Shown: positions 3,098 to 36,068, counted from the stretch's first letter. The stretch: 44,122 bases of DNA from Promethearchaeota archaeon (GCA_016926735.1 JAFGOA010000031.1:1-44122); one strand, 5' to 3'. A program made the numbers and translations. The notes: generated by a model not told the origin, from the letters alone.

Positions 3098-5215
3098 TTA
3101 TATTAGAAAATTTATCAAACCAGCACCATTGCCAATTAAAATAAATAGTCCGATAAGTAATGTAGCTGTAAGAGACATAACAACTAATAATGTATTAATA
3201 CTTGGACCGGATGTATCTTTAAAAGGGTCTCCAACAGTATCTCCTGTAATTGCTGCTTTATGAGTCTCTGTGCCTTTGCCACCTAAATTACCATCCTCTA
3301 TAAATTTCTTGGCATTATCCCACGCACCTCCACTATTACTCATAAAAATAGCAAAGACAAAACCAGATAATATTGCTCCTGCTAGAAAAGCTCCTAAGGA
3401 AGCAACTCCAAATAGAATACCTATGATAATAGGAAATCCTATTGATAACATGCTCGGAAGAAGTAGTTCTTTTATTGATCCCTTAGTAGCGATATCAATA
3501 CATTTATTGAAATCAGCAGCTTCTTCACCACTTAGAATTTTTGGATTTTCTTCAAATTGTCGTCTAATTTCCAAGACCATTTTACCTGCATTTCTCTGAA
3601 CAGCTAAAACTAAGAGAGCTGAAAAAATCGCAGGAGTAACAACTCCAAGAAATGCTCCAATTAAAACACCAGGATCTAAAAGATTAATTGTAGCAAATAA
3701 TGCACCAGCATCTTCTGCTTCTTGTCTGTAAGAAAATAATAACGCTAAGACTGTTAAATTAGCAGCTCCAATTGCAAATCCTTTTGTAATTGCTTTTGCT
3801 GTATTTCCTGCGGAATCTAATCTATCTGCGGTTCTTATTACATCTTCTCCTAGATCTCCTTGTTCTGCTATTCCTCTAGCATTATCACAAATTGGACCAT
3901 ATGCATCATTAGATACGATTGTTGCTACTATTGATAACATGCCTACTGCTGCAATAGCAATTCCAAAAATACCACTGCCATCTATAGCCATTTCGGCAAT
4001 AAGATACGATCCTGCCATAGCAGCTACAATACCTATTGCTGGAGGAAAAACACTTAAAAGACCATAGCTAAAACCACTTAATATTGTTACTGCATGTCCT
4101 TCTTGTGCTGCATTTGCTATATTTCTGGTTGGTGTTTTATCTTCTCTTGTAAAATAATCACTTGTCCATCCAATAATAACACCTGATAAGATACCTAAAG
4201 TAGCACATAACCATAATGCCCAAGCAAACATTATTTCTTCACTATTTGCCAAAAATAAGGTAACTATACCAATACAAACTGCTGCTAAACCTATAAAAAG
4301 AACAGTTGCTAAATAAGTACCACCATTTAGTAATTTACTAAGAACATCAGTCTTCCATACTTTAATTATATATATTCCAATAATTGAAGCAAATAATCCA
4401 AAAGAACAAATCAAGATAGGAAGAATTGCAAATATAGTATTAGATACTAATGATGATAAACCTCCTGTTAGAAGCATAGCAGCTACTATTGAAGCAACAT
4501 AACTATCAAATAAGTCACTGCCCATACCAGCAATATCACCTACATTATCTCCAACATTATCGGCAATAGAAGCTGGATTTCTGGGATCATCTTCAGGAAG
4601 ATTATATTCGGCTTTTCCGACTAAATCAGCTCCTACATCAGCAGTTTTAGTATAAATACCTCCACCACATTTGGCAAATAAAGCAACACTACTAGCGCCA
4701 AAACTAAAACCTAAAACAACAGTAGCGGGATCTTCAACTATATCAGTTGCTCCAGCAATCCAGTATATTGTGGATACGCCTATTAAAGCTACACCAACAA
4801 CTGCCAATCCCATAACGCATCCTCCAAAAAAAGATACGACAAATCCGGGTTTTATTCCTTTTGTACAAGCTTGAGCTGCCCTTGTATTGGCTTTTACTCC
4901 TACAATCATACCTAACCATCCAGCCCACATAGAACCTGCTGATCCTATTAAATATGCTATCATGTGAGCCCAACTATATTCACCAGGTTTTATAGCAAAT
5001 AATAAAACGAGTGAAAGAATTGCTACAAAAATTATTAGGATTTTATATTGTACAGAAATAAAAGTTTTAGCACCACTTTCGATATAACCAGAGACTTCTT
5101 GCATTTTTTCATTTCCTGCATCTTGTTTCATAACATTTTTAGCAAAAACAAGTGCTAAAAGAATAGCAAGAATACCCGAAGCTAATGAAATTATAATTAA
5201 TAAAGGTATTTCCAT
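3098..5215 (-). CDS. hppA: Membrane-bound pyrophosphatase, probably K+-independent H+-pumping
   Basis: GGGIYTKTADVGADLVGK, EDDPRN, DNVGDNVGD, GGAWDNAKK and GDTVGDPFKDTSGP motifs; Lys in GNTAKA. Confidence 0.95.
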   Translation of the reverse strand: MEIPLLIIISLASGILAILLALVFAKNVMKQDAGNEKMQEVSGYIESGAKTFISVQYKILIIFVAILSLVLLFAIKPGEYSWAHMIAYLIGSAGSMWAGWLGMIVGVKANTRAAQACTKGIKPGFVVSFFGGCVMGLAVVGVALIGVSTIYWIAGATDIVEDPATVVLGFSFGASSVALFAKCGGGIYTKTADVGADLVGKAEYNLPEDDPRNPASIADNVGDNVGDIAGMGSDLFDSYVASIVAAMLLTGGLSSLVSNTIFAILPILICSFGLFASIIGIYIIKVWKTDVLSKLLNGGTYLATVLFIGLAAVCIGIVTLFLANSEEIMFAWALWLCATLGILSGVIIGWTSDYFTREDKTPTRNIANAAQEGHAVTILSGFSYGLLSVFPPAIGIVAAMAGSYLIAEMAIDGSGIFGIAIAAVGMLSIVATIVSNDAYGPICDNARGIAEQGDLGEDVIRTADRLDSAGNTAKAITKGFAIGAANLTVLALLFSYRQEAEDAGALFATINLLDPGVLIGAFLGVVTPAIFSALLVLAVQRNAGKMVLEIRRQFEENPKILSGEEAADFNKCIDIATKGSIKELLLPSMLSIGFPIIIGILFGVASLGAFLAGAILSGFVFAIFMSNSGGAWDNAKKFIEDGNLGGKGTETHKAAITGDTVGDPFKDTSGPSINTLLVVMSLTATLLIGLFILIGNGAGLINFLI

Positions 5216-5454
5216 TTTTTTTTCACTTTATAATTTATTTCTATATTTAATTTTCTAAAATACTACTTTTTATATCTATATTAAATTCTATTGATACAAA
5301 ATAGATTAATTATGAAAAATAATTACTCAAAACTTATAAAGTGAATGAAGAAAAATAAGCTATAAAAAAAAGATATGATTTATAAAGATATAATAATGAT
5401 TGATGGATAAATTAACTTTTCTATTTCATAAAAAATAAAAATTTTGGTAAAAAT

Positions 5455-8973: not shown

Positions 8974-9921
8974 TTGATAAATATGTTAGAAATAATGAAA
9001 GAATATCAATGTGATATTTGCATTATTGGTGCAGGTCCAGCAGGATTAAATGCAGCCCTATATTGTAGTAGAGCAAATCGGGATATAATAGTTCTTGAAG
9101 GTAAGGTACAAAGCGCTTTAGAAAAAACAAAAAAAATAGAGAATTGGTTAGGAGAAAAAAGCATTAAAGGAGAAACATTATTAAATAAATTTAGAAATCA
9201 TGTGAATAAATTAGAAAATGTTAGAATCATAAAAGGAGATGTTATTTCTCTCATGTTAGGAATGGGAAAAAATATGATTTCAACAAGAGCAGCAAATATA
9301 ACTGCAGATGTAATTGTTATTGCTACAGGAACCGGAGAAAGAAAAGAAGTTATTAAAGGAGAATCTAATCTTTTGGGCTATGGAATTTCATATTGTGCAC
9401 TTTGTGATGGTCCTGCATACAAAGAAAAAATAGTGTATCTATATGGTGAAGATGATGAATTAATTGAAGACGCTCTAATTCTTCATCAAATGGGATGTAT
9501 AGTGAATATAATTACTCCAAAGGATATTACTGAATTACCTGTAAACATAGAAAAAATAAAGAAAAAATCAATAAATATCCTTGATAAAATGAATATTATT
9601 GAATTAATTCCAAATTCAGAAGGTTTATTAGAAAAAATGAAATGCAAATCAGTGTCTTCCGAACAAGAAGAAGAAATTGAATTGGATGCTCTATTTATTT
9701 TTTCACATGTTCCTTCTACTTCAATTTTTAAAAAAGCCGGTGTTGAATTAGATGATAAAGATAATATCTCTGTTAATCAAAACCAAGAGACAAATATTAA
9801 AGGGGTTTATGCTGCTGGAGATGTAACTGGAGGGCTCTTTCAAGCTATATTTGCTGCCGCGGAAGGAGCAAAAGCAGGGATAAATGCTGCAAAATATTGT
9901 AGACAATTGGAGAAAAAATAA
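8974..9921 (+). CDS. trxB: Thioredoxin reductase-like flavoprotein with atypical NADPH site
   Basis: IIGAGPAG, ATG, SYCALCDG redox motif, TNIKGVYAAGD; the true start may be a downstream ATG. Confidence 0.85.
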   Translation: MINMLEIMKEYQCDICIIGAGPAGLNAALYCSRANRDIIVLEGKVQSALEKTKKIENWLGEKSIKGETLLNKFRNHVNKLENVRIIKGDVISLMLGMGKNMISTRAANITADVIVIATGTGERKEVIKGESNLLGYGISYCALCDGPAYKEKIVYLYGEDDELIEDALILHQMGCIVNIITPKDITELPVNIEKIKKKSINILDKMNIIELIPNSEGLLEKMKCKSVSSEQEEEIELDALFIFSHVPSTSIFKKAGVELDDKDNISVNQNQETNIKGVYAAGDVTGGLFQAIFAAAEGAKAGINAAKYCRQLEKK

Positions 9922-10206: not shown

Positions 10207-11130
10207 ATGGAAAATTATAAGATTTCTGACTTTTTAGAAGATTTTCTAATTGCAAAAGAAGTAGAAGAAGGATGTAGTTCATCTACAATTAGAGCTTATC
10301 GTTATGATTTAGAAAAATTAATTGAAATAATTGGAGATATTGAGATAGAACACAAACTCATTCGTCAAAAAATAAGATTTTTTTTAAAAATACTAAAAGA
10401 TAAAAATTATACTAAAAAAGCAATAGGAAGAAAAATAGCATGTTTGAGATCATATTTTAAATTTCTTACACTCAATGAGTTTATTTCAATCAATCCTATG
10501 TTAACAATTAAGACTCCTAAAATAAGGATAGAAGAAAGTCTTCCGAAATTTTTAGATCTTAAAGATATAAAAATAATTCTTATGCGATTAAAAAATAGGT
10601 CTATTTTTAATACAAAAAAGAGCGAAAGATATTACTTAATGATTAGATTATTGTATTCTACAATGGCAAGAGTAAGTGAATTGTGTAATATAAAAATAAA
10701 AGATATTAATTTTGAAAAGGGGTATATAAACCTAAGGGGAAAAGGGAATAAAGAACGAATTGTACCTGTTGATAATGGAACTTTAGCTAATATTTATGAG
10801 TATTTAGATAATCGAATTAAATATAATTCAGATGAATATCTTTTAGTAAATACAAGAAATGAACAATTAAAACCACGAGTTGTACAAAATGATATTAAAT
10901 TTATTAAAGAAAAATGTGATTTTCCAGATTCTAAGAAAATTACTCCCCATGTATTTCGTCATACAGGTGCAACTCATTTAAGGAGACATGGTATGGATAT
11001 AAGTGAACTCCAAGACATTTTAGGACATAGTTCTCCAAATACTACACGAATATATGCTAAAAATGATATATCAAAGTTAAAAGAATCTTATATTACAATG
11101 CATCCACTAAGTAATTCAAGAGATTTATAG
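10207..11130 (+). CDS. xerA: XerA/XerC-D-like tyrosine recombinase
   Basis: N-terminal SxSTIRAY; catalytic R (ARVSEL), K (GKGNKER), HxxR (TPHVFRH), H (LGHSS) and Y (TTRIY). Confidence 0.9.
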   Translation: MENYKISDFLEDFLIAKEVEEGCSSSTIRAYRYDLEKLIEIIGDIEIEHKLIRQKIRFFLKILKDKNYTKKAIGRKIACLRSYFKFLTLNEFISINPMLTIKTPKIRIEESLPKFLDLKDIKIILMRLKNRSIFNTKKSERYYLMIRLLYSTMARVSELCNIKIKDINFEKGYINLRGKGNKERIVPVDNGTLANIYEYLDNRIKYNSDEYLLVNTRNEQLKPRVVQNDIKFIKEKCDFPDSKKITPHVFRHTGATHLRRHGMDISELQDILGHSSPNTTRIYAKNDISKLKESYITMHPLSNSRDL

Positions 11131-11303
11131 AATATTTTTTTTTTCAAAAATGATTTTATTGTCATTCATTATTATTAGATCAATTCAAATTGATTAAGAA
11201 CCTGAATTATAAAATTTTATAATTTTTACAATATTTATCAATGTATTGAGAATTAATATAAGAAAGTTTAAACTTTAGATATTCTATATCTAGATATTAC
11301 TTT

Positions 11304-12521
11304 TTGAAAAGGCTATTTTTAAGGATAATTATGGATGAGGATAAATTTAGAGCAGAATTCAGTAAAAAGTCTATCTTTAGACAAGCAAGCTCATTAGATT
11401 TAAGTTATGTTCCAGATAAATTATATTGTCGTGATGATGTTCTAACTGAACTAATTCATAATCTTAAACGTATTGTTGATGAAGATAAACAACCATCAAT
11501 GAATATCTTAATCCATGGTAAAGGAGGAGTTGGTAAAACCGTCACAGCTCGATTTTTTGGCAAGAATTTCAAAACCATAGCATTAGAGAAAGATGTTCAA
11601 ATATTCATAGAATACTTTAATTGTGTGAATTTTCGTTCAAAAAGTAAAATTATTAGAGAGTTATTAGGTAAATATACACATGGATCTGGAAGAGGATTTT
11701 CTGATGATGAAGCAATAAAGCTTATTCTTGGTCAATTAATAAGAGACAATGGTTATATGATTTTAATCATTGATGAAATACACCTTTTAAATCCAAAAGA
11801 AGTTTGGGCTATATTAGATATAGCAGAAACGTTTGGACATCAAAATGCTAAATTATCTATAATACTTATTTCTAGAACTAAAGATTGGATGCGATTAGAA
11901 ACAGAACGTATATTGAGTAGATTGAATTCAAAAATAAAATTAAATCCTTATAATATTGACGAGGCTAAACAGATAATACAATATAGAAGTGAACTTGCAT
12001 TAAAAGATGGGGCATTAAGTGATGAAATTATAGAAATGATCTCACAGATTGTCGTAGAACATGAAAATATGAGACATGGTATTGAAATTTTAAGAAAATG
12101 TGGACAACATGCTGATAAAAAAGCGTTTAATGAAATAACAGCAGATATGGTTCGTGAAGCATCTAATGATGTATATCCCACTTTTCGAGGAGATATTGTC
12201 GATAAATTGAACGAACAAGAATTATTGGCATTATATGGAGTTGCTCAATCATTACTTGAAAAAGGAACGCCCTATACTATTGTAGATGATGCATATGAAC
12301 AATATCAAATTATATGCGAGACTTATGAAGTTGAGGTTCATGTAAAGATGAGTTATAGAAAATATATAAGACAACTCACTCAATTAAAAATAATCTCATC
12401 AAAAACAGTAAGAATTGATGATGATAAAAGAGGGAGACATCTTGAGATAACACTATTAGATATTCCTCCAATAAAGGTAATAGAACTTTTAAATAAACTA
12501 TTTGATAAAAAATATAATTAA
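11304..12521 (+). CDS. cdc6: Orc1/Cdc6 replication initiator (likely start ATG 11331)
   Basis: YVPDKLYCRD, Walker A GKGGVGKT, YFNC, Walker B IIDE, C-terminal wHTH ending RGR. Confidence 0.9.
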   Translation: MKRLFLRIIMDEDKFRAEFSKKSIFRQASSLDLSYVPDKLYCRDDVLTELIHNLKRIVDEDKQPSMNILIHGKGGVGKTVTARFFGKNFKTIALEKDVQIFIEYFNCVNFRSKSKIIRELLGKYTHGSGRGFSDDEAIKLILGQLIRDNGYMILIIDEIHLLNPKEVWAILDIAETFGHQNAKLSIILISRTKDWMRLETERILSRLNSKIKLNPYNIDEAKQIIQYRSELALKDGALSDEIIEMISQIVVEHENMRHGIEILRKCGQHADKKAFNEITADMVREASNDVYPTFRGDIVDKLNEQELLALYGVAQSLLEKGTPYTIVDDAYEQYQIICETYEVEVHVKMSYRKYIRQLTQLKIISSKTVRIDDDKRGRHLEITLLDIPPIKVIELLNKLFDKKYN

Positions 12522-16093: not shown

Positions 16094-16984
16094 TTAAGAT
16101 ACAAATCCGTTTTCCATTTTAGAAATTCTTTTTTCTAATACAGTTATTGTTTCGATAATATTACTAATTTTAATTGTTATTGTTTTAATTTGATTTTCCA
16201 ATGATGATAATCTATTCAAAGTCCAATAAATTACATCAGATTCTCTACTTGGTTTCATTAACCAATTAATAATATTTGAGATTAATTTTTTATTATCTTT
16301 TTGACTGATACCTATATTAGGATCATTAGTAAAGATATCAATATCTCCCAAGGTTATTATTTTACCTTGTCCAAATTTAGAATAAGCTCCAACAATAAAT
16401 TCTTTTTTTGATTTATCTTCATCCCATTTCTTTATCGTATCATCATACTTCTCTGCCCAAGTATTTTTACTTAATTTGAGTATGGGGGAAGAATTTTCTT
16501 TTAACAATAGTGAGCATGTTCCTCCGATAACAATCTCTCTTAATTGATTAGTTAATTTATGGTTTGGAAAAGAATCAATCGTTAAAATGCTCGAACAATT
16601 TATATTTTTCTGATTTTCTTCTTTAACAATATTATCTTCGAATAAAATATTAAAAAAGTTACCTGAGATATCATTTAAATTAGTCTTTTGAAGATAATCT
16701 CCCCCATATTCACTAATTAAAAGGAGCGAGCCCCCTGTTCTAACATAATTCATGATATTTTCAATTTCTAAATTTGAAAAATAATCATTTATAGGATTCC
16801 CAATGATAAGAATATCTATATTTTTTAATATACCCTTGTTTATTTCTGAACTTTCATTATGAACTATTTTGAGATTAAACATCTCTAAAAGACTTAAAAA
16901 ACCAGAAAATTCATTATCAGAAGGATTTAACATTTCATTATGAGATAGATCAAATAATATGACTACTTTATCAGAAAAAGGCAT
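16094..16984 (-). CDS. GIFT (GldG/IFT52/DUF4350-like) domain protein with C-terminal coiled coil
   Basis: FDLSHNE, DILIIGNP, YVRTGGSLLL, TNLN, GKIITLGD.DIF, DNKKLISNIINWL; heptad-like tail; no signal peptide. Confidence 0.7.
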   Translation of the reverse strand: MPFSDKVVILFDLSHNEMLNPSDNEFSGFLSLLEMFNLKIVHNESSEINKGILKNIDILIIGNPINDYFSNLEIENIMNYVRTGGSLLLISEYGGDYLQKTNLNDISGNFFNILFEDNIVKEENQKNINCSSILTIDSFPNHKLTNQLREIVIGGTCSLLLKENSSPILKLSKNTWAEKYDDTIKKWDEDKSKKEFIVGAYSKFGQGKIITLGDIDIFTNDPNIGISQKDNKKLISNIINWLMKPSRESDVIYWTLNRLSSLENQIKTITIKISNIIETITVLEKRISKMENGFVS

Positions 16985-19726: not shown

Positions 19727-20215
19727 TTAAATATCAACTTCTAAAGGCTTTACTGAAAGATTTTTTCCACATTGTTCGCAGAAAGCAGATCCTTTTGTAT
19801 TTAGAAGTGTTTTAACATTACTTGAGAATGCTTTACCACATTCAGAGCAAAAGCTAATCTTACCTGGACGTTTTTCTATTATTGCGGAAACTCCGCTATT
19901 ATAATCACCATATTGATAAGATGACACTGGTTGATTTGTTCTTCCTTGAACAGAATTATAAGCACGCTTAAATAACTTAGCAAAACCTAAAACTAACGCT
20001 TTAAATAAATGATAAAGACCTTTTGCTAAATAGTAAATTAGATAAGCCACACCTTTAATGATATAATATACTAAAATACCCGCTAATATAAGAGCCGCAA
20101 CGATCCCGATAATTATTAGAATTTGACCAAATAATGGTTGAGCTAGAAACCATTCTGCAAATTGAGTCCAATAATATTCAATCCATTCTAATGCATTGTT
20201 TGCTATATCACTCAT
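19727..20215 (-). CDS. Membrane-anchored Zn-ribbon protein
   Basis: N-terminal hydrophobic helix; FCSECG...FCEQCG; AGGTG RBS upstream. Confidence 0.8.
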   Translation of the reverse strand: MSDIANNALEWIEYYWTQFAEWFLAQPLFGQILIIIGIVAALILAGILVYYIIKGVAYLIYYLAKGLYHLFKALVLGFAKLFKRAYNSVQGRTNQPVSSYQYGDYNSGVSAIIEKRPGKISFCSECGKAFSSNVKTLLNTKGSAFCEQCGKNLSVKPLEVDI

Positions 20216-21869: not shown

Positions 21870-23102
21870 TTAAGTAATCTTTGATCCACATACTGGACAA
21901 ATTATTGAATCTTTTACAGTTGCACCACAAATAGAGCATAATGTTACAGATTTTCTTGTTTGTGGTGGCCTTAAACTAGTAATAGAAACATTTTCACCAT
22001 TACTTAGAGCTTTATTGGTATCTTTTTTTGATGAATTTGCATTTATTGTAACTTCTTTACCAAAAAATCCCCCTACTTTAACTTTTTTTTGTACAACCTC
22101 AGGTACATTTTTTCCTGAATCTATATTTGACATTGCTTGATTGGATTCTTCTGAAATTAATTCTCCTTCTATTAAATTCTCACCTGATTCTGTTTTTTCT
22201 TCTAAAACCATCTCAACAAAATCTTTATCCAATTTCAAAATTGCACTGCACTTTGGACAACGAAAAATATATGCTAATCCTATATTATTAACTATTGAAT
22301 ATTCAGCTGCACAGCAACTATGGTAAGGACTATTACAATTATAACATTTATGAACCTCATCACTATATGCTTCACATATAGGACATAATTCTTGTTCACA
22401 TAATATACATTCTTTTTTATCTTCTGGAGAAAGAGAGATAAGATCAGTTGCTAATTTATCATAAAAAGTATGCTCATCTTCTAAAATTTTTTTAGATTCA
22501 GCTTTTATTAGATTAAATTCACTCTTACTACGTACCAATGAATTTAAATAGTTTGAAAATTGTTTACTTTCATTGCAATAAAGTGTGCCTCCAAATGTTT
22601 CACTTGTAAGAACTTTTAACTTTACATCATCTTCATAGAATTTATCTTCTCCAATACGAATTATATCGATAAATGTATGAAAATTTTTAGCTTTTAATAC
22701 TAAATTATAAAGAGCAGTGTGATATTCTTCTGATTGTGTGCTTGGTGTATCAGATATAACAATTATTCTATAGATCTTGGGTTCAATTCTACTTTTTTTA
22801 AAAATATGAGCTAATGTTTCATAAAGTCCATTTTCAAAATAGCTTATACCTTCTTCTCTTTCTTCCCAAATATCTTCAATTTTTTCTAAAATAAAAGAGG
22901 CTATTTGATCATAAATACTAAATACTTCTTTTTGTTTTTTAAAGATAACAAATCCATATGTAAAATTGCCCACTTTATTATTCGCATCCATAAATGATTT
23001 AAGACTTTTCAATAAACCTTTTTTTTTAAGGAACTCAGTTGATATATCTAAGTAGAAAATAATTTCCTTTGAATCTAAATTTTCATCATTACTTATTTGC
23101 AT
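21870..23102 (-). CDS. vWA-like domain + C4HC3 RING/PHD-like finger + C-terminal Zn ribbon
   Basis: IFYLDIS...RIIVISD...IDIIRIG...LTSETFGG (vWA-like); CILC-CPIC-CYNC-x4-HSCC-CPKC; terminal CSIC...CPVC. Confidence 0.7.
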   Translation of the reverse strand: MQISNDENLDSKEIIFYLDISTEFLKKKGLLKSLKSFMDANNKVGNFTYGFVIFKKQKEVFSIYDQIASFILEKIEDIWEEREEGISYFENGLYETLAHIFKKSRIEPKIYRIIVISDTPSTQSEEYHTALYNLVLKAKNFHTFIDIIRIGEDKFYEDDVKLKVLTSETFGGTLYCNESKQFSNYLNSLVRSKSEFNLIKAESKKILEDEHTFYDKLATDLISLSPEDKKECILCEQELCPICEAYSDEVHKCYNCNSPYHSCCAAEYSIVNNIGLAYIFRCPKCSAILKLDKDFVEMVLEEKTESGENLIEGELISEESNQAMSNIDSGKNVPEVVQKKVKVGGFFGKEVTINANSSKKDTNKALSNGENVSITSLRPPQTRKSVTLCSICGATVKDSIICPVCGSKIT

Positions 23103-23417
23103 ATTATATTTTTACCTTTGATTTGATATCGGATATAATTTAGTGAAAAAAGCATTCTGTTTTATTAATGAAAAATTAATAAAATTTTATTTAGGAACAA
23201 TAAAAAAGAATTCTTATTTATTTTTATTCTAATTTCTATCAAAGTTCATATTAGTCCTATTACATTAAAAAAAAAATTTCAAGATTACTCAAAAAAGACT
23301 ATGAATGACTCACAATGAATTAATACTAATAATGATAAATCATTTTGTTCAATGATTTACCATATAAAAAGCGATTATACGCTCATAGCAAAATAATACT
23401 TCTATACATTGAATAGG

Positions 23418-24614
23418 TCATAATGTAAATTTCTCATAGGTCACTTTTCCTTCCTTTTTGCGTACCTTATACAGTTTTCCAAAGTATCCTCCAACTCTTA
23501 TTATTTTTACACCCTCCTCTTCAATATTTTCCATCTCAGATTTAGATTCTTCTATCATTAGATTATTTTGTATTTCTATATTTATATCTTGATCTAATAT
23601 ATTTGGTTCATTTTTAGGAAAAATGAGTTGGTCTTTTCTATTTATGTCTGATCTTGGTTCAGGTTTTTTCTTTAGATATAAATCAATAAATTTATTTTCT
23701 TTTTTTTCTTTTCCTTCTTTATCTATAATCTCTCTATCAAGTTTTAATAATATACCACATTTAGGGCATCTAAAAATATATGGTATTCCAACATTATATT
23801 CCACTGAATATTCTAATATACAACAATTATGAAATGGAGACCTGCATTCTTCACAAATTTGAGGGATATCATAAACATCTGAACAAATAGGACAAATTTC
23901 TTTATTGCATATATTACAGACTAAATCTTCTTTACTTTCAGGTTCTATCAAATTTTTTGATAAATTTCTGTAAAATTTTAGATCATCTTGAGTAATGTCA
24001 AAATGTTCTGGTCTATCTGAATAAAGATTTACTATTTCCTTTACTTTCACAAGTTGGTTAAATACAAGTGTAAGTTCTTTCTTGTTATGGGTGTAAAAAA
24101 TACCTCCTTTTGTGTCTGATGCAAGAATATTCAATTTTACATCATCTTTAAAAAACCTATTACCTTCCCCAACAACACGAATAATATCTATAAATGTTGG
24201 AAAAAATTTTACTTTTGATATCAATTCAAACAAAGCATCTTGATAATCTTCAGAAAGTTCACTTGGTGTGTCAGTGAGAACTATAATTCTATTTGATTTT
24301 GATTTCTTTCTAATACTATCGGCAATATATGATAATATATAAAATAATCCCTTTTCAAAATTAGATTTATCTAAAGATCTATTTTTCCAATTTAAATCAA
24401 ATGTTTGAGAAAATTCTGTAATATCACTTTGTTCACTTAAGAATATTGGAAAATCATCATTACTAAAAAAAAGGAGCCCAAATTTACCCTTTAAATTAAG
24501 TTTTTCCTTTTTCTCTATATAATCTTTTATTAGATTATAAAGAGTCTTCTTTTTTATATACTCTTTTGTTAAATCTAAATAAAAAAAAACATCTTCATAT
24601 TTTTCTGCTGACAA
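23418..24614 (-). CDS. vWA-like domain + C4HC3 RING/PHD-like finger; paralogue of 21870-23102
   Basis: FFYLDLT...RIIVLTD...IDIIRV...LASDTKGG; CNIC-CPIC-CEEC-x4-HNCC-CPKC; TTG start. Confidence 0.7.
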   Translation of the reverse strand: MSAEKYEDVFFYLDLTKEYIKKKTLYNLIKDYIEKKEKLNLKGKFGLLFFSNDDFPIFLSEQSDITEFSQTFDLNWKNRSLDKSNFEKGLFYILSYIADSIRKKSKSNRIIVLTDTPSELSEDYQDALFELISKVKFFPTFIDIIRVVGEGNRFFKDDVKLNILASDTKGGIFYTHNKKELTLVFNQLVKVKEIVNLYSDRPEHFDITQDDLKFYRNLSKNLIEPESKEDLVCNICNKEICPICSDVYDIPQICEECRSPFHNCCILEYSVEYNVGIPYIFRCPKCGILLKLDREIIDKEGKEKKENKFIDLYLKKKPEPRSDINRKDQLIFPKNEPNILDQDINIEIQNNLMIEESKSEMENIEEEGVKIIRVGGYFGKLYKVRKKEGKVTYEKFTL

Positions 24615-24897: not shown

Positions 24898-26871
24898 ATG
24901 GAAGAAATACTTAATAAATTAGAATTATCAGAAGAATCAATAAAACTGTATCTAGGAACTTTTGGGAAAGACATTTTATCATTTCAAGAACTAAAGTTAA
25001 TTATTCCAGAAATTATTGAAAAAAATCTAATTAAAAGATTAAACGAACTTCTCAATGCGGGATTATTAATTCAAGTCAATACCGATAAAGATGTATCACA
25101 AACAGATTTCTTTGCTATTCCTCCTTTTGATCCAATTCTAAACTACTTTAAAAACATAAAAGTAAGTTTTTCAGATATCAGTAGAGCTCTTAATGATTTA
25201 ATTGATTCTACAACAAAAGATATTTTTAAGAATAATAAAATTGAGCTTGAAACGGTTTATAAAGACTTCAAAGATATAGAAAAAGATTTTGTTGAGGATA
25301 GTCTTTTACAAAAAAAGGATGCTGAAGATATTTCAAAACAAATGGATGTAATTAGAAAAATAGGTGAAATTATCTCAAACATTCAAAATATAATAAAAGA
25401 TATCTCCCAAACAGAATTTTCTAATCTTATAAAAAGATTTGTAACTCTTAAAGAAGAGTTAAAATCAAAAATAGAAAGTCTTGAAATCAGGAAAAAAAAG
25501 GAAGAACTATTATTCCAAATACTTGATGATACCTTTAAAGATAGACTCGGAAATACAGTGAAAGATTTCATAAATACATTGAATTCTATGATAAAGCAGG
25601 AATTTAATAAAGTACCATTTAACGAAATTATTGAAAATGTTATCCATTCTCGTGATGACTTTAAAATCATGCTCTTAAATTTACTGAATAGTTTTGAATT
25701 GAATATAAATAAGATTTCAGATTTAATAAATGATAAAAAAACGAATCTAAATCAAAGTTTTGATGAACTTAAAAATCAAATAATAAATAAAATAAATTCT
25801 ATTGTTCAGAAAACAATAAAAAAAATAGAAAACCTAAATGATCCCATTATAACCTTGATATCCGAATCCAAATTAAAAACAACTTCTATAAAAACAGATA
25901 TCATTAAAAAATCTCAAGAAATTAGAAGCCTTACGAAGATTAAACAATATTTATTATCATCTATTAAAGATTCCAAAGAAGAATTATTATTAATCATTCC
26001 CAAAATAGAGGATTATATAGAGATAGGAATGTTTAAAAAATTACCTAAAACATTGAAAATCAAAATTGCTTCCTCTGATCCTCATGTTAATAGTAAAGTA
26101 AAACAATTTAAAGAACTTAATAATCTTGAATTTCGAAAATATGACAAACAGAATTTTATAGGAATAAAATCTGATAATAATTTAATTGGATTTGGACTAA
26201 TAATAGAAAATAAAGATCCTATGGATAATTTTATTGGTATTTCATCTAATAATAGTATTCTTATTGATTTATTGAAACCTTCCCTATATAAGATTTGGTC
26301 AGATGCTGAACATGGATCAAGTAGAATATTCGTTGAAGAAAAAAAATATAATTTTCCAAAAGTTGAAAATATGATGATTTCTCAAGAAAAAGAAATAAAC
26401 AGTATTGGGAAAAATAGAATACATATACCTAAATCTACTGAACCTCCAAAAAATATACCCCCACCTTCTGATATTTCAGAAATGTCTGTGGAACCTAAAA
26501 ATTTTAAATTAGAACAAGAACCGATAAATACTTCTTCTTTTCAAAAACAAAACTCTGAATTAAATATAAATGAATCTGTAAAATTTATCTCATTAGTTAA
26601 TCCAAAAGCAGGAGATAATTCTGGAATGATAATAAATGAAGCATTTAATACTTTGATTCAAAATATAAATATTTATTCTGGAGAAACCTTATCTCAAGAA
26701 TTAAATAGAATTACTGAATTAATATTAGAGAAAAGAGGATTTTCAGTAACTTTACATAACATTCGCACAACTATAAATGGTTATAAGAATCAAAAAATTC
26801 TTTTAACAATTGAGCAAAAGAACAAGATTTTTAACATAATTGAGGAATGGAAGAAAAGATTATTCACTTAG
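24898..26871 (+). CDS. Large multidomain protein: TrmB-like wHTH, long helical region, PLD-like domain, Pro-rich linker, C-terminal helical domain
   Basis: LELSEESIKLY...LNELLNAGLL...FAIPP (TrmB-like N-terminus); SKEELLLIIP..KIKIASS..EFRKY..IGIKSD (TrmB/PLD-like, no HKD). Confidence 0.55.
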   Translation: MEEILNKLELSEESIKLYLGTFGKDILSFQELKLIIPEIIEKNLIKRLNELLNAGLLIQVNTDKDVSQTDFFAIPPFDPILNYFKNIKVSFSDISRALNDLIDSTTKDIFKNNKIELETVYKDFKDIEKDFVEDSLLQKKDAEDISKQMDVIRKIGEIISNIQNIIKDISQTEFSNLIKRFVTLKEELKSKIESLEIRKKKEELLFQILDDTFKDRLGNTVKDFINTLNSMIKQEFNKVPFNEIIENVIHSRDDFKIMLLNLLNSFELNINKISDLINDKKTNLNQSFDELKNQIINKINSIVQKTIKKIENLNDPIITLISESKLKTTSIKTDIIKKSQEIRSLTKIKQYLLSSIKDSKEELLLIIPKIEDYIEIGMFKKLPKTLKIKIASSDPHVNSKVKQFKELNNLEFRKYDKQNFIGIKSDNNLIGFGLIIENKDPMDNFIGISSNNSILIDLLKPSLYKIWSDAEHGSSRIFVEEKKYNFPKVENMMISQEKEINSIGKNRIHIPKSTEPPKNIPPPSDISEMSVEPKNFKLEQEPINTSSFQKQNSELNINESVKFISLVNPKAGDNSGMIINEAFNTLIQNINIYSGETLSQELNRITELILEKRGFSVTLHNIRTTINGYKNQKILLTIEQKNKIFNIIEEWKKRLFT

Positions 26872-27867: not shown

Positions 27868-29085
27868 GTGCCAAAAATGACTGAATATGACTATTTCATG
27901 GTTTATGAGCTTTTAGAGACCGGTGAAGAAGAGAGAATTGAGGCAGATCAAAATAATCTACAAGAAATTCTTCATCCAGAACAAGTTTTTGTAATTGTTA
28001 AAGAGGATGTAAGAAGAATATTTATATGGAAAGGAGCAAAATCTCCTGTTAGAAAACGATTCATTAGTTCAAGAGTAGCAAGTAAATTGCAAGATGAACT
28101 TATGAAACAAGCTGCTTTTCATCGCTGTAAAATTGTCTCTGTAGATCAAGGTGATGAACCTGAAGAATTCCTTAAGGTCTTCAGATTGGAAACTATGGAA
28201 GTTAAAGAAAAATTAGAAGATATGAGATATGTTCGAAATATCGAGAAAGATCTCGATGTTATAAAAGGAAAAGTTGTTGATGATGTTCCTATTAAAAAGC
28301 AAGTAGATGAAGAGTATTATTCTCCAGCATTAGAAGAGATGAAACGTAAAGGAATAGAAATAACATCAAAACCAATTCAACAAGATACAACCACAACTCA
28401 ATCAATGAAAATAAAAACATATCAACCTCCTCCTCATAAATTTGAAAAACCAAATCAAGATGAAATAATCAAAAAGATTTTGTCAAATAATGTTCCAAAT
28501 CAATATAAAAGACAAAATTTAATAATTGGAGAATCTTTGTTTGGTGCTGTTTCCAAAATAACAAATGTATTTGGAGAAGATATCGAAGAAACAGAATGGG
28601 AAAAAGTTGAAAAACTTCCCAAAGGAATTTTTAGTCTTGATAATTATTTATGTAGAATTTATTTCAACACACAAAAGGGAACTGTTGATGCTTTAGAAAT
28701 TTTAAAACCAGATAATGGAAAACCCGAGATGAAAAAAACGTCTTTTAAGATATCTGATGATGATATTTCATTAGAAAAGAAAATACTAAAATTAAAAACA
28801 CCTGAAAATTCATATCGAGAGAATTTAATAATTGGTTATAATTTATATGGTGCTATTTCAAAAAAAATTGAAGTTTTTGGAGAAGAAAGAGAAGAAGAAG
28901 AATGGAACTCTTTAAAAAAGGTTCCAAAAGAAATAGTTACATTGTCATCTCATTTATTCCGAATTTATTTTAATGAAAAGGAAGATAATGTTGATGCTAT
29001 TGAAATTTTGAAAAAAGAAGGGAATAGCGCTAATAAAAGCAGTACCAAAAGAAATTTACCAAAAATTCCCAGTAACAATGATTAG
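27868..29085 (+). CDS. Single-gelsolin-domain protein with duplicated C-terminal domain
   Basis: aa ~8-104 IFIWKGAKS...VDQGDEPEEF gelsolin signature; internal repeats at aa 202-280 and 304-382. Confidence 0.8.
   Translation: MPKMTEYDYFMVYELLETGEEERIEADQNNLQEILHPEQVFVIVKEDVRRIFIWKGAKSPVRKRFISSRVASKLQDELMKQAAFHRCKIVSVDQGDEPEEFLKVFRLETMEVKEKLEDMRYVRNIEKDLDVIKGKVVDDVPIKKQVDEEYYSPALEEMKRKGIEITSKPIQQDTTTTQSMKIKTYQPPPHKFEKPNQDEIIKKILSNNVPNQYKRQNLIIGESLFGAVSKITNVFGEDIEETEWEKVEKLPKGIFSLDNYLCRIYFNTQKGTVDALEILKPDNGKPEMKKTSFKISDDDISLEKKILKLKTPENSYRENLIIGYNLYGAISKKIEVFGEEREEEEWNSLKKVPKEIVTLSSHLFRIYFNEKEDNVDAIEILKKEGNSANKSSTKRNLPKIPSNND
28471..29013 (+). repeat. Two 79-aa intragenic repeats (28471-28707 and 28777-29013)
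   Basis: Ungapped alignment KKIL...RxNLIIG..LxGAxSK...VFGE..EE.EW...RIYFN...VDAxEILK. Confidence 0.9.
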
Positions 29086-33152: not shown

Positions 33153-35396
33153 TTGGAAAAAAAAATCAATATAATCGATGAAAAAATAAAACTTAAACAA
33201 CTAATTACTAATTTAATCAATATAACATCAACAATAAAAAAAAAAAATATCGAGAATAATTCTAGTTATATCCAATGGAAGAAAAAATTTTACGATCTCT
33301 ATAATAAGGATAATCTCGATGTCGATCTCTATCTCTATTTTTCAATAATATATTACATGGGTTATATTTTAATTTCTAAATTTTCTTTAGGCTTTGATTT
33401 ACCCAAAAAAAGTAATATACTAACTAAAAATTATTTTCAGAAGATATATTATGATTTTTCTCAAAAAAAAAAAGAAATTGATTTATTTACTTTGGGTTAC
33501 TTTAATTATATTTTAGAAATAGATTTAGATATATCTACTAGGTTTCTATCTATTTTATGGAAAATAATACAATTATTAACAAAATTAAATATAGAACCAG
33601 AATTATATTTTGATTTTATCGTTCAAAATATTATTCCAAAAGAAATTCGCCATGATACAGGTGAATTTTATACTCCATTTTTTCTTGTTCAAAAGATGGT
33701 TGATCATTCATATATTTTTGGTGAAAAAGTCTTGGACCCTTGCTGTGGTTCAGGGAATTTTTTAATTATAATTATAAGAAAAATTTTGAATTCAGATCTT
33801 CCTGATCTAAAAAAAAAACAAGCTATAAATAATCTTTATGGATTTGATATCAATCCCGTCTCGATATATATGGCTAAAATTAATATTATTTTATTATTAA
33901 GTAATAAATTTGAGAATTTTAAAATCAATATATTTAATTTAAACTCATTATACTCAAATAATAAATTTAAAGATTATTTATTTGATTTAATAATAGGGAA
34001 TCCTCCTTGGTATACCTTTCGAGATATAGATTCTATTGAAAAACAAGAAATTATAAGAAATCTTGTTGATAAAATGGAAATAAAACCATCGCCTAAAAAT
34101 ATTTTAAATATTGAGATATCTACTGTATTTTTTTATTCTTCTTATGAAAAATATATGAAAACAAACTCGAAGATCTTTTTTGTAATAACTAAAGGGGTTA
34201 TAACTGGTTCTCATACTTCTCGATTTAGAAATTTTAGAGGATTTGAATCAATAGAAATTTGGAATTTTAATAATTCGTTAAAAAAGGTTTTTCCTGTTGA
34301 TTTTATTTGTCTATTTGCCAGAAAAAGTAATAATAATAATCCTGTATTTGAATTAAGGATTCCTTGTTATAACTATATTGCACAAAAAATTAATGATAAT
34401 AGTTATAATTTAATTAATTACAATTTAAAACTTGAATCAAAAGAGATTTTAGTACCATATAATAGAGTAATAAAGGGTAATAAAATATATATAAAAAGAT
34501 TAGTCACCCAATCAAAAAAAGAAGAATTATTTGATTTAAAAGAAAGTATCTACAAATCATTATTTAGAAAAGGTGCAGATCTCAATCCTAGAAATTTAAT
34601 TTTTGTAAATGTAAAATCAATAGAAAATCCTCTTGTAAAAATTAATCCAGATGAAAGAATTTTTAAACGAGCAAAAAAACCTTGGAATAAAATTGAATTT
34701 AGAGATGAAATAGTTGATAAAAAAAATATTTTCAATGTATTGAAGAGTACAGAGTTATTGAAATTTTATATTTATAATAATTATAAAGTATTTTTACCCA
34801 TCGATAATAAAAATCTGAAATTTGATTTGAACACTCTAAATGAATATTCAAGATCATTTTATAATAAAATAAATAAGGTCTATTTAAGGTTAAAAAAGAC
34901 TACTACTAAAAATAAATCATTGATGGATAATCTCAATAGATGGGGTAAACTTCTACATACAGCACAATCGAAAAAAATCAAAGTTATTTATAATAATTCT
35001 GGAGGAATTCTCAAGTCAGCTGTAATTCAGGGCAATTATATAATATCTGGGGATTTAAGTTATTATTCAACTGATAATCTTGAAGAAGCTTATTATTTAT
35101 CAGCAATATTGAACTCAAATCTTATCACAAATCAGATACAAATTATAAAGAGTTCAAGGCATATCTTTAAAAAACCATTTAATTTTCCGATAAGAAAATT
35201 CAATCCTCAAAATAAAAATCATCGAGAACTAGCTTCTCTAAGCAAAAAAGCAGAAAAAGAAGTAATAATTTATTTTAGTAATCTTGAAAAAAAAAGACCT
35301 ACTACTTTTTTTTTCCCTAAAGGGATTATAAACAATAAAATTTCTCAAATTATAAATGATATAGATAATATTGTTAAGTTTGAATTATCTTCATAA
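33153..35396 (+). CDS. N6-adenine DNA methyltransferase with C-terminal specificity region (Eco57I/type IIG-like), apparently orphan
   Basis: GEFYTP, motif I LDPCCGSG, GFDINP, motif IV IGNPPW, YYLSAILNS. Confidence 0.85.
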   Translation: MEKKINIIDEKIKLKQLITNLINITSTIKKKNIENNSSYIQWKKKFYDLYNKDNLDVDLYLYFSIIYYMGYILISKFSLGFDLPKKSNILTKNYFQKIYYDFSQKKKEIDLFTLGYFNYILEIDLDISTRFLSILWKIIQLLTKLNIEPELYFDFIVQNIIPKEIRHDTGEFYTPFFLVQKMVDHSYIFGEKVLDPCCGSGNFLIIIIRKILNSDLPDLKKKQAINNLYGFDINPVSIYMAKINIILLLSNKFENFKINIFNLNSLYSNNKFKDYLFDLIIGNPPWYTFRDIDSIEKQEIIRNLVDKMEIKPSPKNILNIEISTVFFYSSYEKYMKTNSKIFFVITKGVITGSHTSRFRNFRGFESIEIWNFNNSLKKVFPVDFICLFARKSNNNNPVFELRIPCYNYIAQKINDNSYNLINYNLKLESKEILVPYNRVIKGNKIYIKRLVTQSKKEELFDLKESIYKSLFRKGADLNPRNLIFVNVKSIENPLVKINPDERIFKRAKKPWNKIEFRDEIVDKKNIFNVLKSTELLKFYIYNNYKVFLPIDNKNLKFDLNTLNEYSRSFYNKINKVYLRLKKTTTKNKSLMDNLNRWGKLLHTAQSKKIKVIYNNSGGILKSAVIQGNYIISGDLSYYSTDNLEEAYYLSAILNSNLITNQIQIIKSSRHIFKKPFNFPIRKFNPQNKNHRELASLSKKAEKEVIIYFSNLEKKRPTTFFFPKGIINNKISQIINDIDNIVKFELSS

Positions 35397-35525: not shown

Positions 35526-36068
35526 GTGGGTATTAATAGCGTGGAAAAAAGAAAGTACTTATTTAAAATTGTAACTATTGGAGAAGGAGGATCAGGAAAA
35601 ACATCTTTACTACGTCGATATGTTGAAGGTAAGTTTGATGAATCAACTGTTTTGACTGTTGGTGTAGATTTCTACATAAAAGAACTCGACAGTAATTCAG
35701 AAGCAGAATGTACTTTACAATTATGGGATTTTAGTGGTCAATTAAGATTTCGACATATGTTAGGAAATTATGTTATGGGAGCTCGAGCTGCTCTTCTCCT
35801 AGTTGATCTTACTCATATGCCTGAAATGGAAGAATTGATAGAATGGGTAAATATAGTTAGATCTCATGATCCCGTCTTACCTATTCTTTTGGTAGGAGCA
35901 AAAGCAGATCTAAAAGACTTAATTGCTGTTGAAGATGAATTTATGTTGAATGTTGTGAATACCTTTAATATGGCGGGATATATAAAAACTTCTGCAAAAA
36001 CGGGACATAATGTAAATAAAGCTTTTAAGCTAATCGCTAAAACCTTAATGAATCGATGCAAATATTAA
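35526..36068 (+). CDS. Rab-like small GTPase (Asgard type)
   Basis: G1 GEGGSGKT, G2 TVGVDF, G3 WDFSGQ, G4 AKAD, G5 SAK. Confidence 0.92.
   Translation: MGINSVEKRKYLFKIVTIGEGGSGKTSLLRRYVEGKFDESTVLTVGVDFYIKELDSNSEAECTLQLWDFSGQLRFRHMLGNYVMGARAALLLVDLTHMPEMEELIEWVNIVRSHDPVLPILLVGAKADLKDLIAVEDEFMLNVVNTFNMAGYIKTSAKTGHNVNKAFKLIAKTLMNRCKY

Follow-up and report, generated by a model that had tools for sequence, protein, structure and literature searches.

What does a tandem pair of archaeal genes do when each of them joins a vWA-like domain to a zinc finger, an arrangement familiar from the eukaryotic TFIIH subunits p44 and p34? The question is raised by a 44,122-nucleotide stretch of DNA from a Promethearchaeota archaeon (GCA_016926735.1, JAFGOA010000031.1:1-44122), which was analysed in its entirety and is called here the window. 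The original prediction, made from the sequence alone, had seen in this pair an Asgard heterodimer that might act in ubiquitin signalling or in the regulation of XPD/XPB.

A tandem pair of paralogous genes

The two adjacent open reading frames, here called A and B, both lie exactly where they had been placed, on the minus strand. They are indeed paralogues, with 138/393 identities (35%) over nearly their full length (BLASTP of A against B, E 3e-67), and the AlphaFold2 model of A has a mean pLDDT of 81.7. The features of the locus are:

21870..23102, minus: gene A, 410 aa, ATG start; vWA, C4HC3 zinc finger, acidic linker, GGFFG hairpin and zinc ribbon
22530..23072, minus: A, vWA-fold domain (residues 11-191) with degenerate MIDAS D19-I-S-T-E; from AlphaFold2 and Foldseek
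22248..22409, minus: A, Cys/His scaffold C232-C285, a probable PHD-type C4HC3 cross-brace to which an N-terminal CxxC and a CC doublet are added; from spacing, conservation and a domain model
22092..22217, minus: A, acidic low-complexity linker (residues 296-337); from sequence, and pLDDT <50 for 309-335
22041..22091, minus: A, conserved beta-hairpin (residues 338-354) with GGFFG (344-348); from alignment and model
21873..21947, minus: A, C-terminal zinc ribbon (C389, C392, C402, C405); Pfam Zn_ribbon_3 at E 6.6e-4, below the cut-off
23418..24614, minus: gene B, 398 aa, TTG start; vWA, finger and GGYFG hairpin, without the terminal zinc ribbon
24051..24599, minus: B, vWA-fold domain (about residues 6-188) with degenerate MIDAS D14-L-T-K-E; placed by alignment to A
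23757..23918, minus: B, Cys/His scaffold C233-C286 with the same spacing as in A; invariant columns in 120 B orthologues
23460..23510, minus: B, conserved GGYFG hairpin region (375-379); G375, G376, F378 and G379 invariant in 120 B orthologues
24898..26871, plus: divergent 657-aa gene, a conserved neighbour; possible N-terminal TrmB-like winged helix and long helical regions

Relatives are numerous (371 for A at E<=1e-3 and 501 for B), and the databases name the members of the family only as "hypothetical", "VWA domain-containing" or "RING finger protein". In the tree, A and B form sister clades (99/95) inside a wider Lokiarchaeial vWA-finger family, and each of the two clades is retained with a support of 100/100. 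This topology traces A and B to a duplication within the Lokiarchaeial family, separate from the one that produced p44 and p34; as sister clades they parallel that eukaryotic pair, and a direct assignment of one gene to p44 and the other to p34 does not hold. Some distant relatives are much longer (about 1100 aa), having a vWA, a finger and a ribbon followed by a long coiled-coil tail (e.g. P0336). The possibility that this tail represents a Rosetta-stone fusion with the 657-aa neighbour was considered and discarded (best BLASTP E 3.7).

The tandem itself is well conserved: of the 71 related loci having at least 1500 bp of DNA upstream of A, 67 have B immediately upstream on the same strand, with a partial B in one of the others and no B in three. 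Moreover, the 657-aa gene is present and divergent in 58/59 of the related loci with sufficient upstream DNA, and the same upstream block includes a gelsolin-like gene (51/52) and a PssA-like gene (56/58). This block cannot be taken as evidence for an operon, since the flanking housekeeping genes are also conserved (37-45 of 80 loci). About 20 kb of housekeeping synteny surrounds the pair (aminotransferase, diaminopentanoate dehydrogenase, phosphate transporter, PhoU and DeoC aldolase) and the neighbourhood consequently says little about function. The 657-aa protein has no Pfam match at E<=1e-3 (HxlR HTH at E 0.051); Pfam TrmB occurs in 25-33% of the members of its Atlas neighbour clusters, which is a lead only. 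No gene for ubiquitin, E1, E2, JAB or the proteasome was found among the 32 ORFs of at least 100 aa in the window, and none for the ubiquitin system or the proteasome among ten conserved flanking ORFs, of which nine belong to the related locus L012 and one to a second such locus, L008. XPD and XPB are likewise missing from the window and the flanks examined, so that a genomic link to XPD, XPB, E1, E2 or ubiquitin is not supported.

The vWA domain and the zinc modules

The N-terminal domain of A, modelled with pLDDT >90, is the alpha/beta vWA fold that had been anticipated. In Foldseek it aligns with solved vWA domains (ANTXR1, p44, p34 and Rpn10) at TMt 0.6-0.72 and rmsd 3.3-4.3 Å; for example, ANTXR1 gives TMt 0.71 and rmsd 3.9 Å, p44 (5of4_E) TMt 0.72 and rmsd 3.4 Å, and Rpn10 (8amz_W) TMt 0.69. 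Pfam VWA is matched by 4/20 family members (best E 2e-7), with no match for A or B themselves. The MIDAS is degenerate in both proteins, the pentapeptides listed above standing in place of DxSxS. An intact DxSxS...T...D is absent, D19 and D118 are the sole invariant MIDAS residues of the 121-sequence alignment, and the Ser position is occupied by Ile, Val or Leu in most A orthologues.

When solved structures were searched with a profile of A and B only, no vWA chain was retrieved at E<=10. The whole-family profile, built from 48 sequences, retrieved Rpn10 (2.8e-13), p44 (7.7e-8), BABAM1 (1.4e-7) and Tfb4 (4.9e-6); the sequence link to Rpn10 and p44 emerges only after more canonical relatives have been added to the profile. 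These matches put the vWA domains of A and B into one sequence class with those of the intracellular eukaryotic proteins Rpn10, TFIIH p44/Tfb4 and BABAM1. BatA/BatB-like bacterial vWA proteins reach scores close to that of p44 against the family profiles, so eukaryotic ubiquitin or TFIIH proteins are not alone in showing this likeness. The link to the eukaryotic proteins is real, but it is not specific.

The relatives with a canonical MIDAS, P0371 and 31 others, are mostly Helarchaeota where their source is named. Their profile aligns with that of A/B over 280 columns spanning both the vWA and the finger (hhalign, 99.7% probability, E 3.7e-26), and hmmsearch connects A/B to the P0371 family at E 5.9e-15. 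Against solved structures the P0371-family profile gives Rpn10 (9.7e-17) and p44 (2.1e-12), and precomputed annotation assigns Pfam Ssl1 to 27/32 of its members. Their C-terminal RING-H2 matches the E3 RINGs of Arkadia, RNF13 and RNF38 (2.3e-6 to 2.2e-4).

The finger of A and that of B share, with equal spacing, the Cys scaffold CxxC-x4-CxxC-x9-CxxC-x4-HxCC-x17-CxxC described in the original prediction. A regular expression for this scaffold matched 184/241 proteins; six of the 57 non-matching ones are explained by a Cys232 to Gly replacement (P0007) or by a two-residue insertion at the last CxxC (P0133, P0139, P0181, P0191 and P0230). In the 121-sequence alignment C235, C240, C243, C253, C256, H261, C263, C264, C282 and C285 never vary, and at least 90% of the sequences retain C232. 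The domain appears to be a cross-brace finger of the RING/PHD type, as had been thought (pLDDT 88.6 when the finger of A was modelled alone), and the extra CxxC together with the CC doublet probably forms a third zinc site.

The RING consensus has the spacing C3-x(1-3)-H-x(2-3)-C-x2-C, while that of PHD fingers is C4HC3, C-x2-C...C-x2-C-x4-H-x2-C...C-x2-C, in which the second position ahead of ligand 7 is aromatic. The present finger, C-x2-C-x9-C-x2-C-x4-H-x2-C-x17-C-x2-C, is PHD-type, its ligands C253-x2-C256-x4-H261-x2-C264 departing from the RING spacing. In sequence, the best matches to the finger part of the wide family profile are the FANCL RING (5e-4) and the MTF2 PHD (9.5e-4). In structure, the Foldseek matches of the finger alone are led by RINGs, all of them weak (E 1.2e-2 to 0.1, TM 0.35-0.48; none of the 500 counted at E<=1e-3). 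The best ones are the Deltex RING (1.2e-2), the FANCL RING from an E2-E3 complex (4ccg_X), Rbx2, Slx1, NSE1 (probability 0.97, rmsd 2.8 Å, 67 columns) and PHF7 with UBE2D2; several of them are C4HC3 fingers that hold an E2.

Downstream of the finger the two proteins diverge somewhat. An acidic linker had been attributed to both; it exists in A, but the corresponding region of B is mixed and Lys/Glu-rich. The terminal zinc ribbon was rightly described as one-sided: it is present in A only, and its four Cys are invariant in 120 A orthologues. Most B orthologues also carry a ribbon, which is absent from this B and from its closest aligned relative, P0123, implying that the B lineage of the window has lost it. 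The hairpin that follows the linker is a feature missing from the original list; in the model of A its strands are formed by residues 338-343 and 349-354, and all 121 aligned sequences have G344, G345, F347 and G348.

Candidate roles for the pair

We tentatively propose that A and B are a non-catalytic paralogous adaptor pair of the Lokiarchaeial family, probably serving ubiquitin-type signalling. The two proteins would work together as a two-subunit scaffold, for which the conserved order of the tandem and the retention of both clades argue. A prediction of the full-length A and B complex (each with a 120-row alignment) scored 0.25 (mark 0.32), a result that speaks neither for binding nor against it. 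Because the MIDAS is degenerate, the vWA domains would dock partner proteins rather than bind a ligand through a metal. The system served may be ubiquitin-type modification or recognition; the vWA would then dock the complex, and an E2 or some other partner would be held by the finger. Lacking the RING-H2 of their Helarchaeal relatives, A and B may be non-catalytic partners or receptors and not ligases themselves. The fold and domain content, the class of the vWA, the RING-H2 of the P0371 family and the E2-holding look-alikes of the finger all point in this direction. On the other side stand the lack of any ubiquitin, E1, E2, JAB or proteasome gene in the window or the flanking ORFs scanned, the PHD-type spacing of the finger (CxxC-x4-H-x2-C and not the RING-type C-x-H-x2-C), the weakness of all of its fold matches, the BatA/BatB-like scores and the best Foldseek matches of the whole A model, which are TFIIH subunits and not Rpn10. 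The majority of PHD fingers read peptides and do not act as ligases.

These TFIIH matches suggest a rival reading, weaker than the ubiquitin-type adaptor one and on balance unlikely, in which A and B would be a p44/p34-like core scaffold, the vWA domains binding and regulating the archaeal helicases XPD and XPB and the fingers interlocking the subunits. The top matches of the whole A model are Tfb4 (7zsa_4, 3.4e-10, and 7o4k_4, 4.4e-10) and p44 (8ebs_E, 1.6e-9), with alignments of 312-390 columns that extend past the vWA. In the Atlas feature rows listed, the non-archaeal clusters that bear a name are those of p44 (0.86-0.89) and Tfb4 (0.83); values below 0.9 are a lead only. The matches of the family profile to p44 and Tfb4 and the conserved tandem of paralogues are in keeping with this, p44 and p34 being likewise an interlocked pair of vWA and zinc-finger proteins (PMC6422496). 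The long alignments, however, have an rmsd of 12-21 Å (15-18 Å for the top Tfb4 matches), and vWA-only matches trail them by about two orders of magnitude or less. Neither A nor B has a Pfam match to Ssl1, Tfb4 or C1_4 at E<=10, and none of 20 family members matches Ssl1 (PF04056), Tfb4 (PF03850) or C1_4 (PF07975) at E<=0.1, which speaks against membership of the p44/p34 families. C1_4 is equally absent from 40 distant relatives. Ssl1 does pass its cut-off of 27 bits in two of the distant relatives, P0371 (30.1) and P0387 (30.7), where the generic VWA model scores higher (59.6-72 bits), and precomputed annotation gives Tfb4 in one, P0399. Nor is there a tie specific to TFIIH, for the profile matches to p44 and Tfb4 are confined to the vWA and Rpn10 scores better; no TFIIH chain occurs among the 50 best fold matches of the finger alone, contrary to the expectation of a TFIIH-like finger. 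The separate duplication of A and B within an archaeal family and the lack of XPD or XPB in the window or the flanks examined weigh against it as well.

The PHD-type spacing invites a different explanation, which we consider very unlikely: the finger could be a true PHD that binds an extended peptide, such as the Lys-rich N-terminal tails of Lokiarchaeial histones, while the vWA recruits other factors. The aromatic position of the PHD consensus is taken by F280, two residues ahead of the seventh ligand; this residue is kept in at least 90% of the sequences and aligns with the PHD Trp of JARID1D. The best matches of the finger-alone profile are the PHDs of MTF2 (6.4e-3) and then JARID1D (0.02), and the Pfam PHD cut-off of 24 bits is exceeded in 3/40 distant relatives (P0285, 26.1; P0287, 26.8; P0293, 25.9). 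Lokiarchaeota also have genes for histone modifiers and for histones whose tails are long and K-rich (bioRxiv 10.1101/2021.11.30.470311). The PHD matches of A and B themselves are all sub-threshold, though, with none to Pfam PHD (PF00628) in either protein and only zf-HC5HC2H at E 5.7 for B; the fold matches lean to RINGs, and no chromatin gene is linked to the pair in the window or the flanks examined.

It is similarly improbable that A and B are Rpn10-like receptors, whose vWA would dock on a proteasome-associated or Cdc48/PAN-type machine and whose zinc modules would bind ubiquitin-like tags in place of UIMs. Among solved structures, both family profiles and P0371 alone (3.1e-8) match Rpn10 best in sequence, and the Rpn10 vWA is found among the fold matches of A (8pfd_B, 8j4a_B, 4cr2_W and 8amz_W, TMt 0.62-0.70). 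Yet A and B have no Pfam UIM match at E<=10 (HMMER filters can lose short motifs), there is no proteasome gene nearby, the terminal ribbon is a generic zinc ribbon and, to our knowledge, Lokiarchaeia have no 19S lid on which an Rpn10 could dock. Finally, a Sec23/24- or ArnB-like nature can be dismissed, ArnB (8s05_A) being just rank 24 among many vWA matches and the A model being without the beta-sandwich that follows the vWA in ArnB and Sec23/24 (PMC12852372).

Full-text searches revealed no published account of the Lokiarchaeial vWA-finger family; the 2011 prokaryotic-RING paper of Burroughs, Iyer and Aravind lay outside them. The family is widely conserved in Lokiarchaeia, has a vWA of the Rpn10/p44 class together with a PHD/RING-type finger and is kept as a paralogue pair, which makes A and B a concrete and clonable candidate for asking whether such scaffolds predate the eukaryotes and what they bound. 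As far as we know, p44, p34 and Rpn10 are treated as eukaryotic inventions. Likewise, chromatin reader domains such as the PHD are described as eukaryotic innovations in one broad survey (bioRxiv 10.1101/2021.11.30.470311). A more far-reaching view, quite unlikely in our estimation, is that Rpn10 and TFIIH p44/p34, as eukaryotic intracellular vWA scaffolds, stem from this archaeal family, whose C4HC3 domain would even then have been a PHD/RING finger recruiting an E2 or reading lysine-rich tails. If so, some of the TFIIH core or the ubiquitin-receptor machinery, along with the PHD fold as a working module, would be older than the eukaryotes. Were A and B merely lineage-specific adaptors with no tie to ubiquitin, helicases or chromatin, they would be a routine new domain architecture.

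Comparison with known systems

TFIIH p44 (Ssl1) and p34 (Tfb4) resemble A and B in being a pair of paralogues with an N-terminal vWA, a non-canonical metal site and zinc modules thereafter; no likeness between their zinc domains and those of A and B was detected by sequence profiles or by the finger-alone model. The acidic linker, the GGFFG hairpin and the zinc ribbon are extras of A/B, and we know of none of these in TFIIH subunits. In TFIIH the pair is joined by interlocking eZnF domains and a RING-vWA contact, and p44 binds XPD through its vWA and p34 through its zinc modules (PMC6422496).

The vWA of Rpn10/S5a, an intracellular docking domain, is the best sequence match to the family vWA among solved structures. 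Its own metal site is not known to be functional. In Rpn10 the vWA is followed by UIM helices, whereas in A and B it is followed by zinc fingers, with no UIM match. Plant E3 ligases of the RGLG and WAV3 types, with the former of which the pair had also been compared, were retrieved by none of our searches; they do join a vWA and a RING in one protein, but the order of the domains and the subtype of the vWA (copine-like in RGLG) are different. WAV3 is mentioned in PMC12852372. The Asgard RING E3 of the ESCRT-ubiquitin cluster, which we also considered, appears to be a different protein, RING-only and in another gene cluster (bioRxiv 10.1101/2023.07.25.550441).

With respect to the finger, those of FANCL, NSE1, Slx1 and PHF7, like the PHDs of MTF2 and JARID1D, share with A and B the ligand pattern of an eight-ligand cross-brace, the CxxC-x4-H-x2-C and the aromatic residue before ligand 7. 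The A/B fingers differ from them in the additional CxxC and the CC doublet, and all of the matches are weak. The P0371 family is homologous to A and B over both the vWA and the finger. It keeps a canonical DxSxS MIDAS (D14, S16 and S18 invariant) where that of A and B is degenerate, and it ends in a RING-H2 where A and B have instead the hairpin and, in A, the zinc ribbon.

Domains of the A and B paralogues

The stretch for which the original prediction proposed two adjacent paralogues is exactly filled by two minus-strand ORFs, A and B, whose products are 35% identical over nearly their full length (E 3e-67).

21870-23102, minus strand: A, 410 aa, ATG start
23418-24614, minus strand: B, 398 aa, TTG start

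The window's G+C content is 22-32%. Its Ras-family GTPase, gelsolin-repeat protein, IFT52-GIFT-like protein and Cdc6/Orc1 are typical Asgard products. In Pfam and NCBIfam scans of A and B every match fell below the cut-off, and only the Zn_ribbon_3 match to A's C-terminus (E 6.6e-4) reached E<=0.001. The spacer between B and A (23103-23417) is 315 bp long and very AT-rich; in related loci the two frames are separated, stop to stop, by a median of 142 bp.

Both proteins begin with the predicted vWA fold. An AlphaFold2 model of A, built from an alignment of 121 A/B relatives, has a mean pLDDT of 81.7. Its alpha/beta domain (residues 11-191, pLDDT >90) can be superimposed on vWA domains of known structure at TMt 0.6-0.72, and its disordered segments are residues 309-335 and 356-374. 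The MIDAS metal site is degenerate in both A and B, as had been noticed from the sequence, and D19, D118 and a post-linker GGFFG motif are invariant in the alignment. The Cys scaffold CxxC-x4-CxxC-x9-CxxC-x4-HxCC-x17-CxxC likewise has the same spacing in A and B; ten of its 11 Cys/His positions are invariant among the 121 sequences and the other, C232, is retained in at least 90% of them. The terminal zinc ribbon, predicted for one protein of the pair, is that of A and is invariant in 120 A orthologues. Since most B orthologues also end in such a ribbon, while the window's B and its closest aligned relative (P0123) have none, the lineage of the window's B has lost the ribbon.

In ligand spacing, and in having a conserved aromatic residue two places ahead of ligand seven, the finger matches the PHD-type C4HC3 consensus. 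In the model of A it reaches pLDDT >90 apart from a ten-residue block at 74; modeled in isolation (138 sequences), its pLDDT is 88.6. Foldseek matches to the isolated finger were all weak, with none of the 500 counted at E<=1e-3, and the best were RING/PHD-like: Deltex, FANCL (4ccg_X), Rbx2, Slx1, NSE1, TRIM2 and PHF7. Sequence profiles give the same picture. Against solved-structure sequences the finger profile found first the MTF2 PHD (6.4e-3) and then the JARID1D PHD (0.02), to which the finger was aligned; the finger part of a wide family profile found FANCL (5e-4) and the MTF2 PHD (9.5e-4). From the alignments, the extra CxxC pair, a CC doublet and D248, which is invariant, point to a putative third zinc site in the finger.

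The gene neighborhood

The comparison covered 80 related loci, the best of 200 confirmed matches and all of them Asgard MAG records. In 71 of these the upstream sequence extends for 1500 bp or more, and 67 of the 71 have a complete B immediately upstream of A and in the same orientation. One locus (L024) has only a finger-bearing B fragment of 172 aa (9180-9695), and three (L014, L037 and L074) have A with no B in the upstream DNA present, L074 also lacking the 657-aa neighbor listed here with other nearby genes.

19727-20215, minus strand: 162-aa protein, hydrophobic N-terminal half, C-terminal double zinc ribbon
24898-26871, plus strand: 657-aa protein, divergent from B
27868-29085, plus strand: gelsolin-like protein, 405 aa, sub-threshold gelsolin repeat (E 8.2e-4, residues 33-102)

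Of 59 loci long enough to include it, 58 carry the gene for the 657-aa protein; the corresponding figures are 56 of 58 for a PssA-like CDP-alcohol phosphatidyltransferase gene and 51 of 52 for the gelsolin-like gene (again within the best 80 of 200). The synteny around A/B extends on both sides into ordinary metabolic and transport genes, and for this reason a functional operon embracing the wider neighborhood was rejected. Scanning the window's 32 ORFs of at least 100 aa and ten flanking ORFs found no ubiquitin, E1, E2, JAB, proteasome, XPD or XPB gene. Because the synteny is this general and no ubiquitin- or TFIIH-type genes lie nearby, we take the tandem arrangement, not the neighborhood, as evidence that the two paralogues have both been retained and probably work jointly.

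Several neighbors deserve brief mention. The 657-aa protein, which has no Pfam match at E<=1e-3 (HxlR HTH weakly, E 0.051) and whose neighbor clusters in Atlas, a feature-similarity search of protein clusters, carry TrmB in 25-33% of their members, may be a regulatory protein containing long helical stretches. By eye, the translated gelsolin-like protein has two clearly similar internal repeats of ~65 aa in its C-terminal half; the homologous region of one related locus (L012, 3407-4489) gives a weak HeH/LEM/Rho_N-like match. The same locus encodes a zinc-ribbon protein related to LURP-one (LOR, scramblase-like fold; 4684-5415, minus strand), a gene found between the gelsolin-like and PssA-like genes in 54 of the best 80 of 200 loci and for which the window has no space between 27701 and 27868. 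The 162-aa protein weakly matches the Rhp7 treble clef (E 1e-4) and the UBZ ubiquitin-binding zinc finger (E 5e-3), and 15 of these 80 loci have a homologous gene downstream of A.

Elsewhere in the window, at 10207-12521 (plus strand), a tyrosine recombinase gene (Phage_integrase, E 7.9e-41) stands directly upstream of the Cdc6/Orc1 gene. The enzyme may be of Xer type, close to a replication origin, or part of a mobile element. Eukaryote-like signatures are an IFT52 GIFT-domain-like protein (16094-16984, minus strand, E 7.9e-13) and a Ras/Roc-family small GTPase (35526-36068, plus strand, E 3.7e-35). A 747-aa N6-adenine DNA methylase of the MmeI/Eco57I type (33153-35396, plus strand) may be a type IIG restriction-modification enzyme.

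The wider family

At E<=1e-3, A has 371 relatives and B 501; those with a named source are all Asgard or metagenomic, mostly Promethearchaeota/Lokiarchaeota, and the databases call them "hypothetical", "VWA domain-containing" or "RING finger protein". Searched with a profile, 1.84 billion representatives yielded 482 proteins at E<=1e-3, of which 172 reach E<=1e-10 and 78 reach E<=1e-30. When 40 more distant relatives were scanned with Pfam, three passed the PHD cut-off and one that of C1_1, many gave sub-threshold Prok-RING_1 matches, and P0371 and P0387 passed the Ssl1 cut-off on a canonical vWA domain. The P0371 family comprises 32 relatives, of which most of those with a named source are Helarchaeota and 27 match Ssl1. 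It has the same finger as A/B, but differs in its intact DxSxS MIDAS and its C-terminal RING-H2; the two profiles align over 280 columns (99.7% probability, E 3.7e-26).

In a midpoint-rooted maximum-likelihood tree of 48 members (first 320 residues, without eukaryotic sequences), A and B each form one clade (100/100 for both) and are sisters (99/95); the P0371 group, with its canonical MIDAS, and two other subgroups branch outside this pair. Some relatives are long, at 622-1118 aa (P0334, P0336, P0338, P0342, P0348, P0352, P0356 and P0361), and in these the vWA-like N-terminus, shared finger and zinc ribbon are extended by a tail of hundreds of residues. The tail of P0336, the one read through, is Lys/Glu-rich, has a coiled-coil appearance and precedes a further C-terminal domain.

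Eukaryotic resemblances and possible function

A profile of A and B only found no vWA chain at E<=10 among solved-structure sequences. The profile of the 48-sequence family matched Rpn10 (2.8e-13), a bacterial BatA-like protein (1.7e-10), p44 (7.7e-8), BABAM1 (1.4e-7) and Tfb4 (4.9e-6), all confined to the vWA part; that of the P0371 family matched Rpn10 (9.7e-17), BatA-like (3.8e-15) and p44 (2.1e-12), and its RING-H2 matched Arkadia and RNF13 (about 1e-5 to 1e-6).

What the analysis establishes is a pair of conserved paralogues that combine a vWA fold, its metal site degenerate, with a C4HC3 finger of probable cross-brace type, a disordered linker, a conserved hairpin and, in A, a ribbon. 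We envisage non-catalytic adaptors that would work via protein contacts and probably act together. The system served would most likely be ubiquitin-type modification or recognition, a tentative reading suggested by three observations: Rpn10 is the nearest sequence relative of the vWA domain; the P0371 relatives carry an E3-type RING-H2 at their C-terminus; and the finger best matches the C4HC3 fingers of FANCL, NSE1, Slx1 and PHF7, some of them solved bound to E2. Whatever probability this and the following readings leave falls to a scaffold in some other process.

A TFIIH-like role is unlikely. In its favor are the analogy of a paralogue pair, the whole-model fold ranking, in which Foldseek placed Tfb4 and p44 first (E 3.4e-10 to about 1e-8, 312-390 columns, rmsd 12-21 A), and an Atlas lead, in which clusters of eukaryotic p44 score 0.86-0.89 and Tfb4 scores 0.83, behind archaeal clusters and at lead level only. 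Matches to the vWA domain alone begin at about 2e-8 and include ANTXR1, Rpn10, p34 and ArnB. Because profile and fold matches are spread in this way, the vWA domain is of the intracellular Rpn10/p44/Tfb4/BABAM1 type and not specifically p44-like. No homology of the A/B zinc modules to their p44/p34 equivalents was detected. Roles as a PHD reader or as an Rpn10-like receptor are each more improbable still.

A full-text literature search found no published work on this vWA-finger family, which the supplements of Asgard comparative-genomics papers may list as an orthologous group. What appears new with respect to known systems is the combination of vWA domain and zinc finger as a scaffold in an archaeal setting, the probable tri-zinc PHD-like finger and the conserved paralogue pair.
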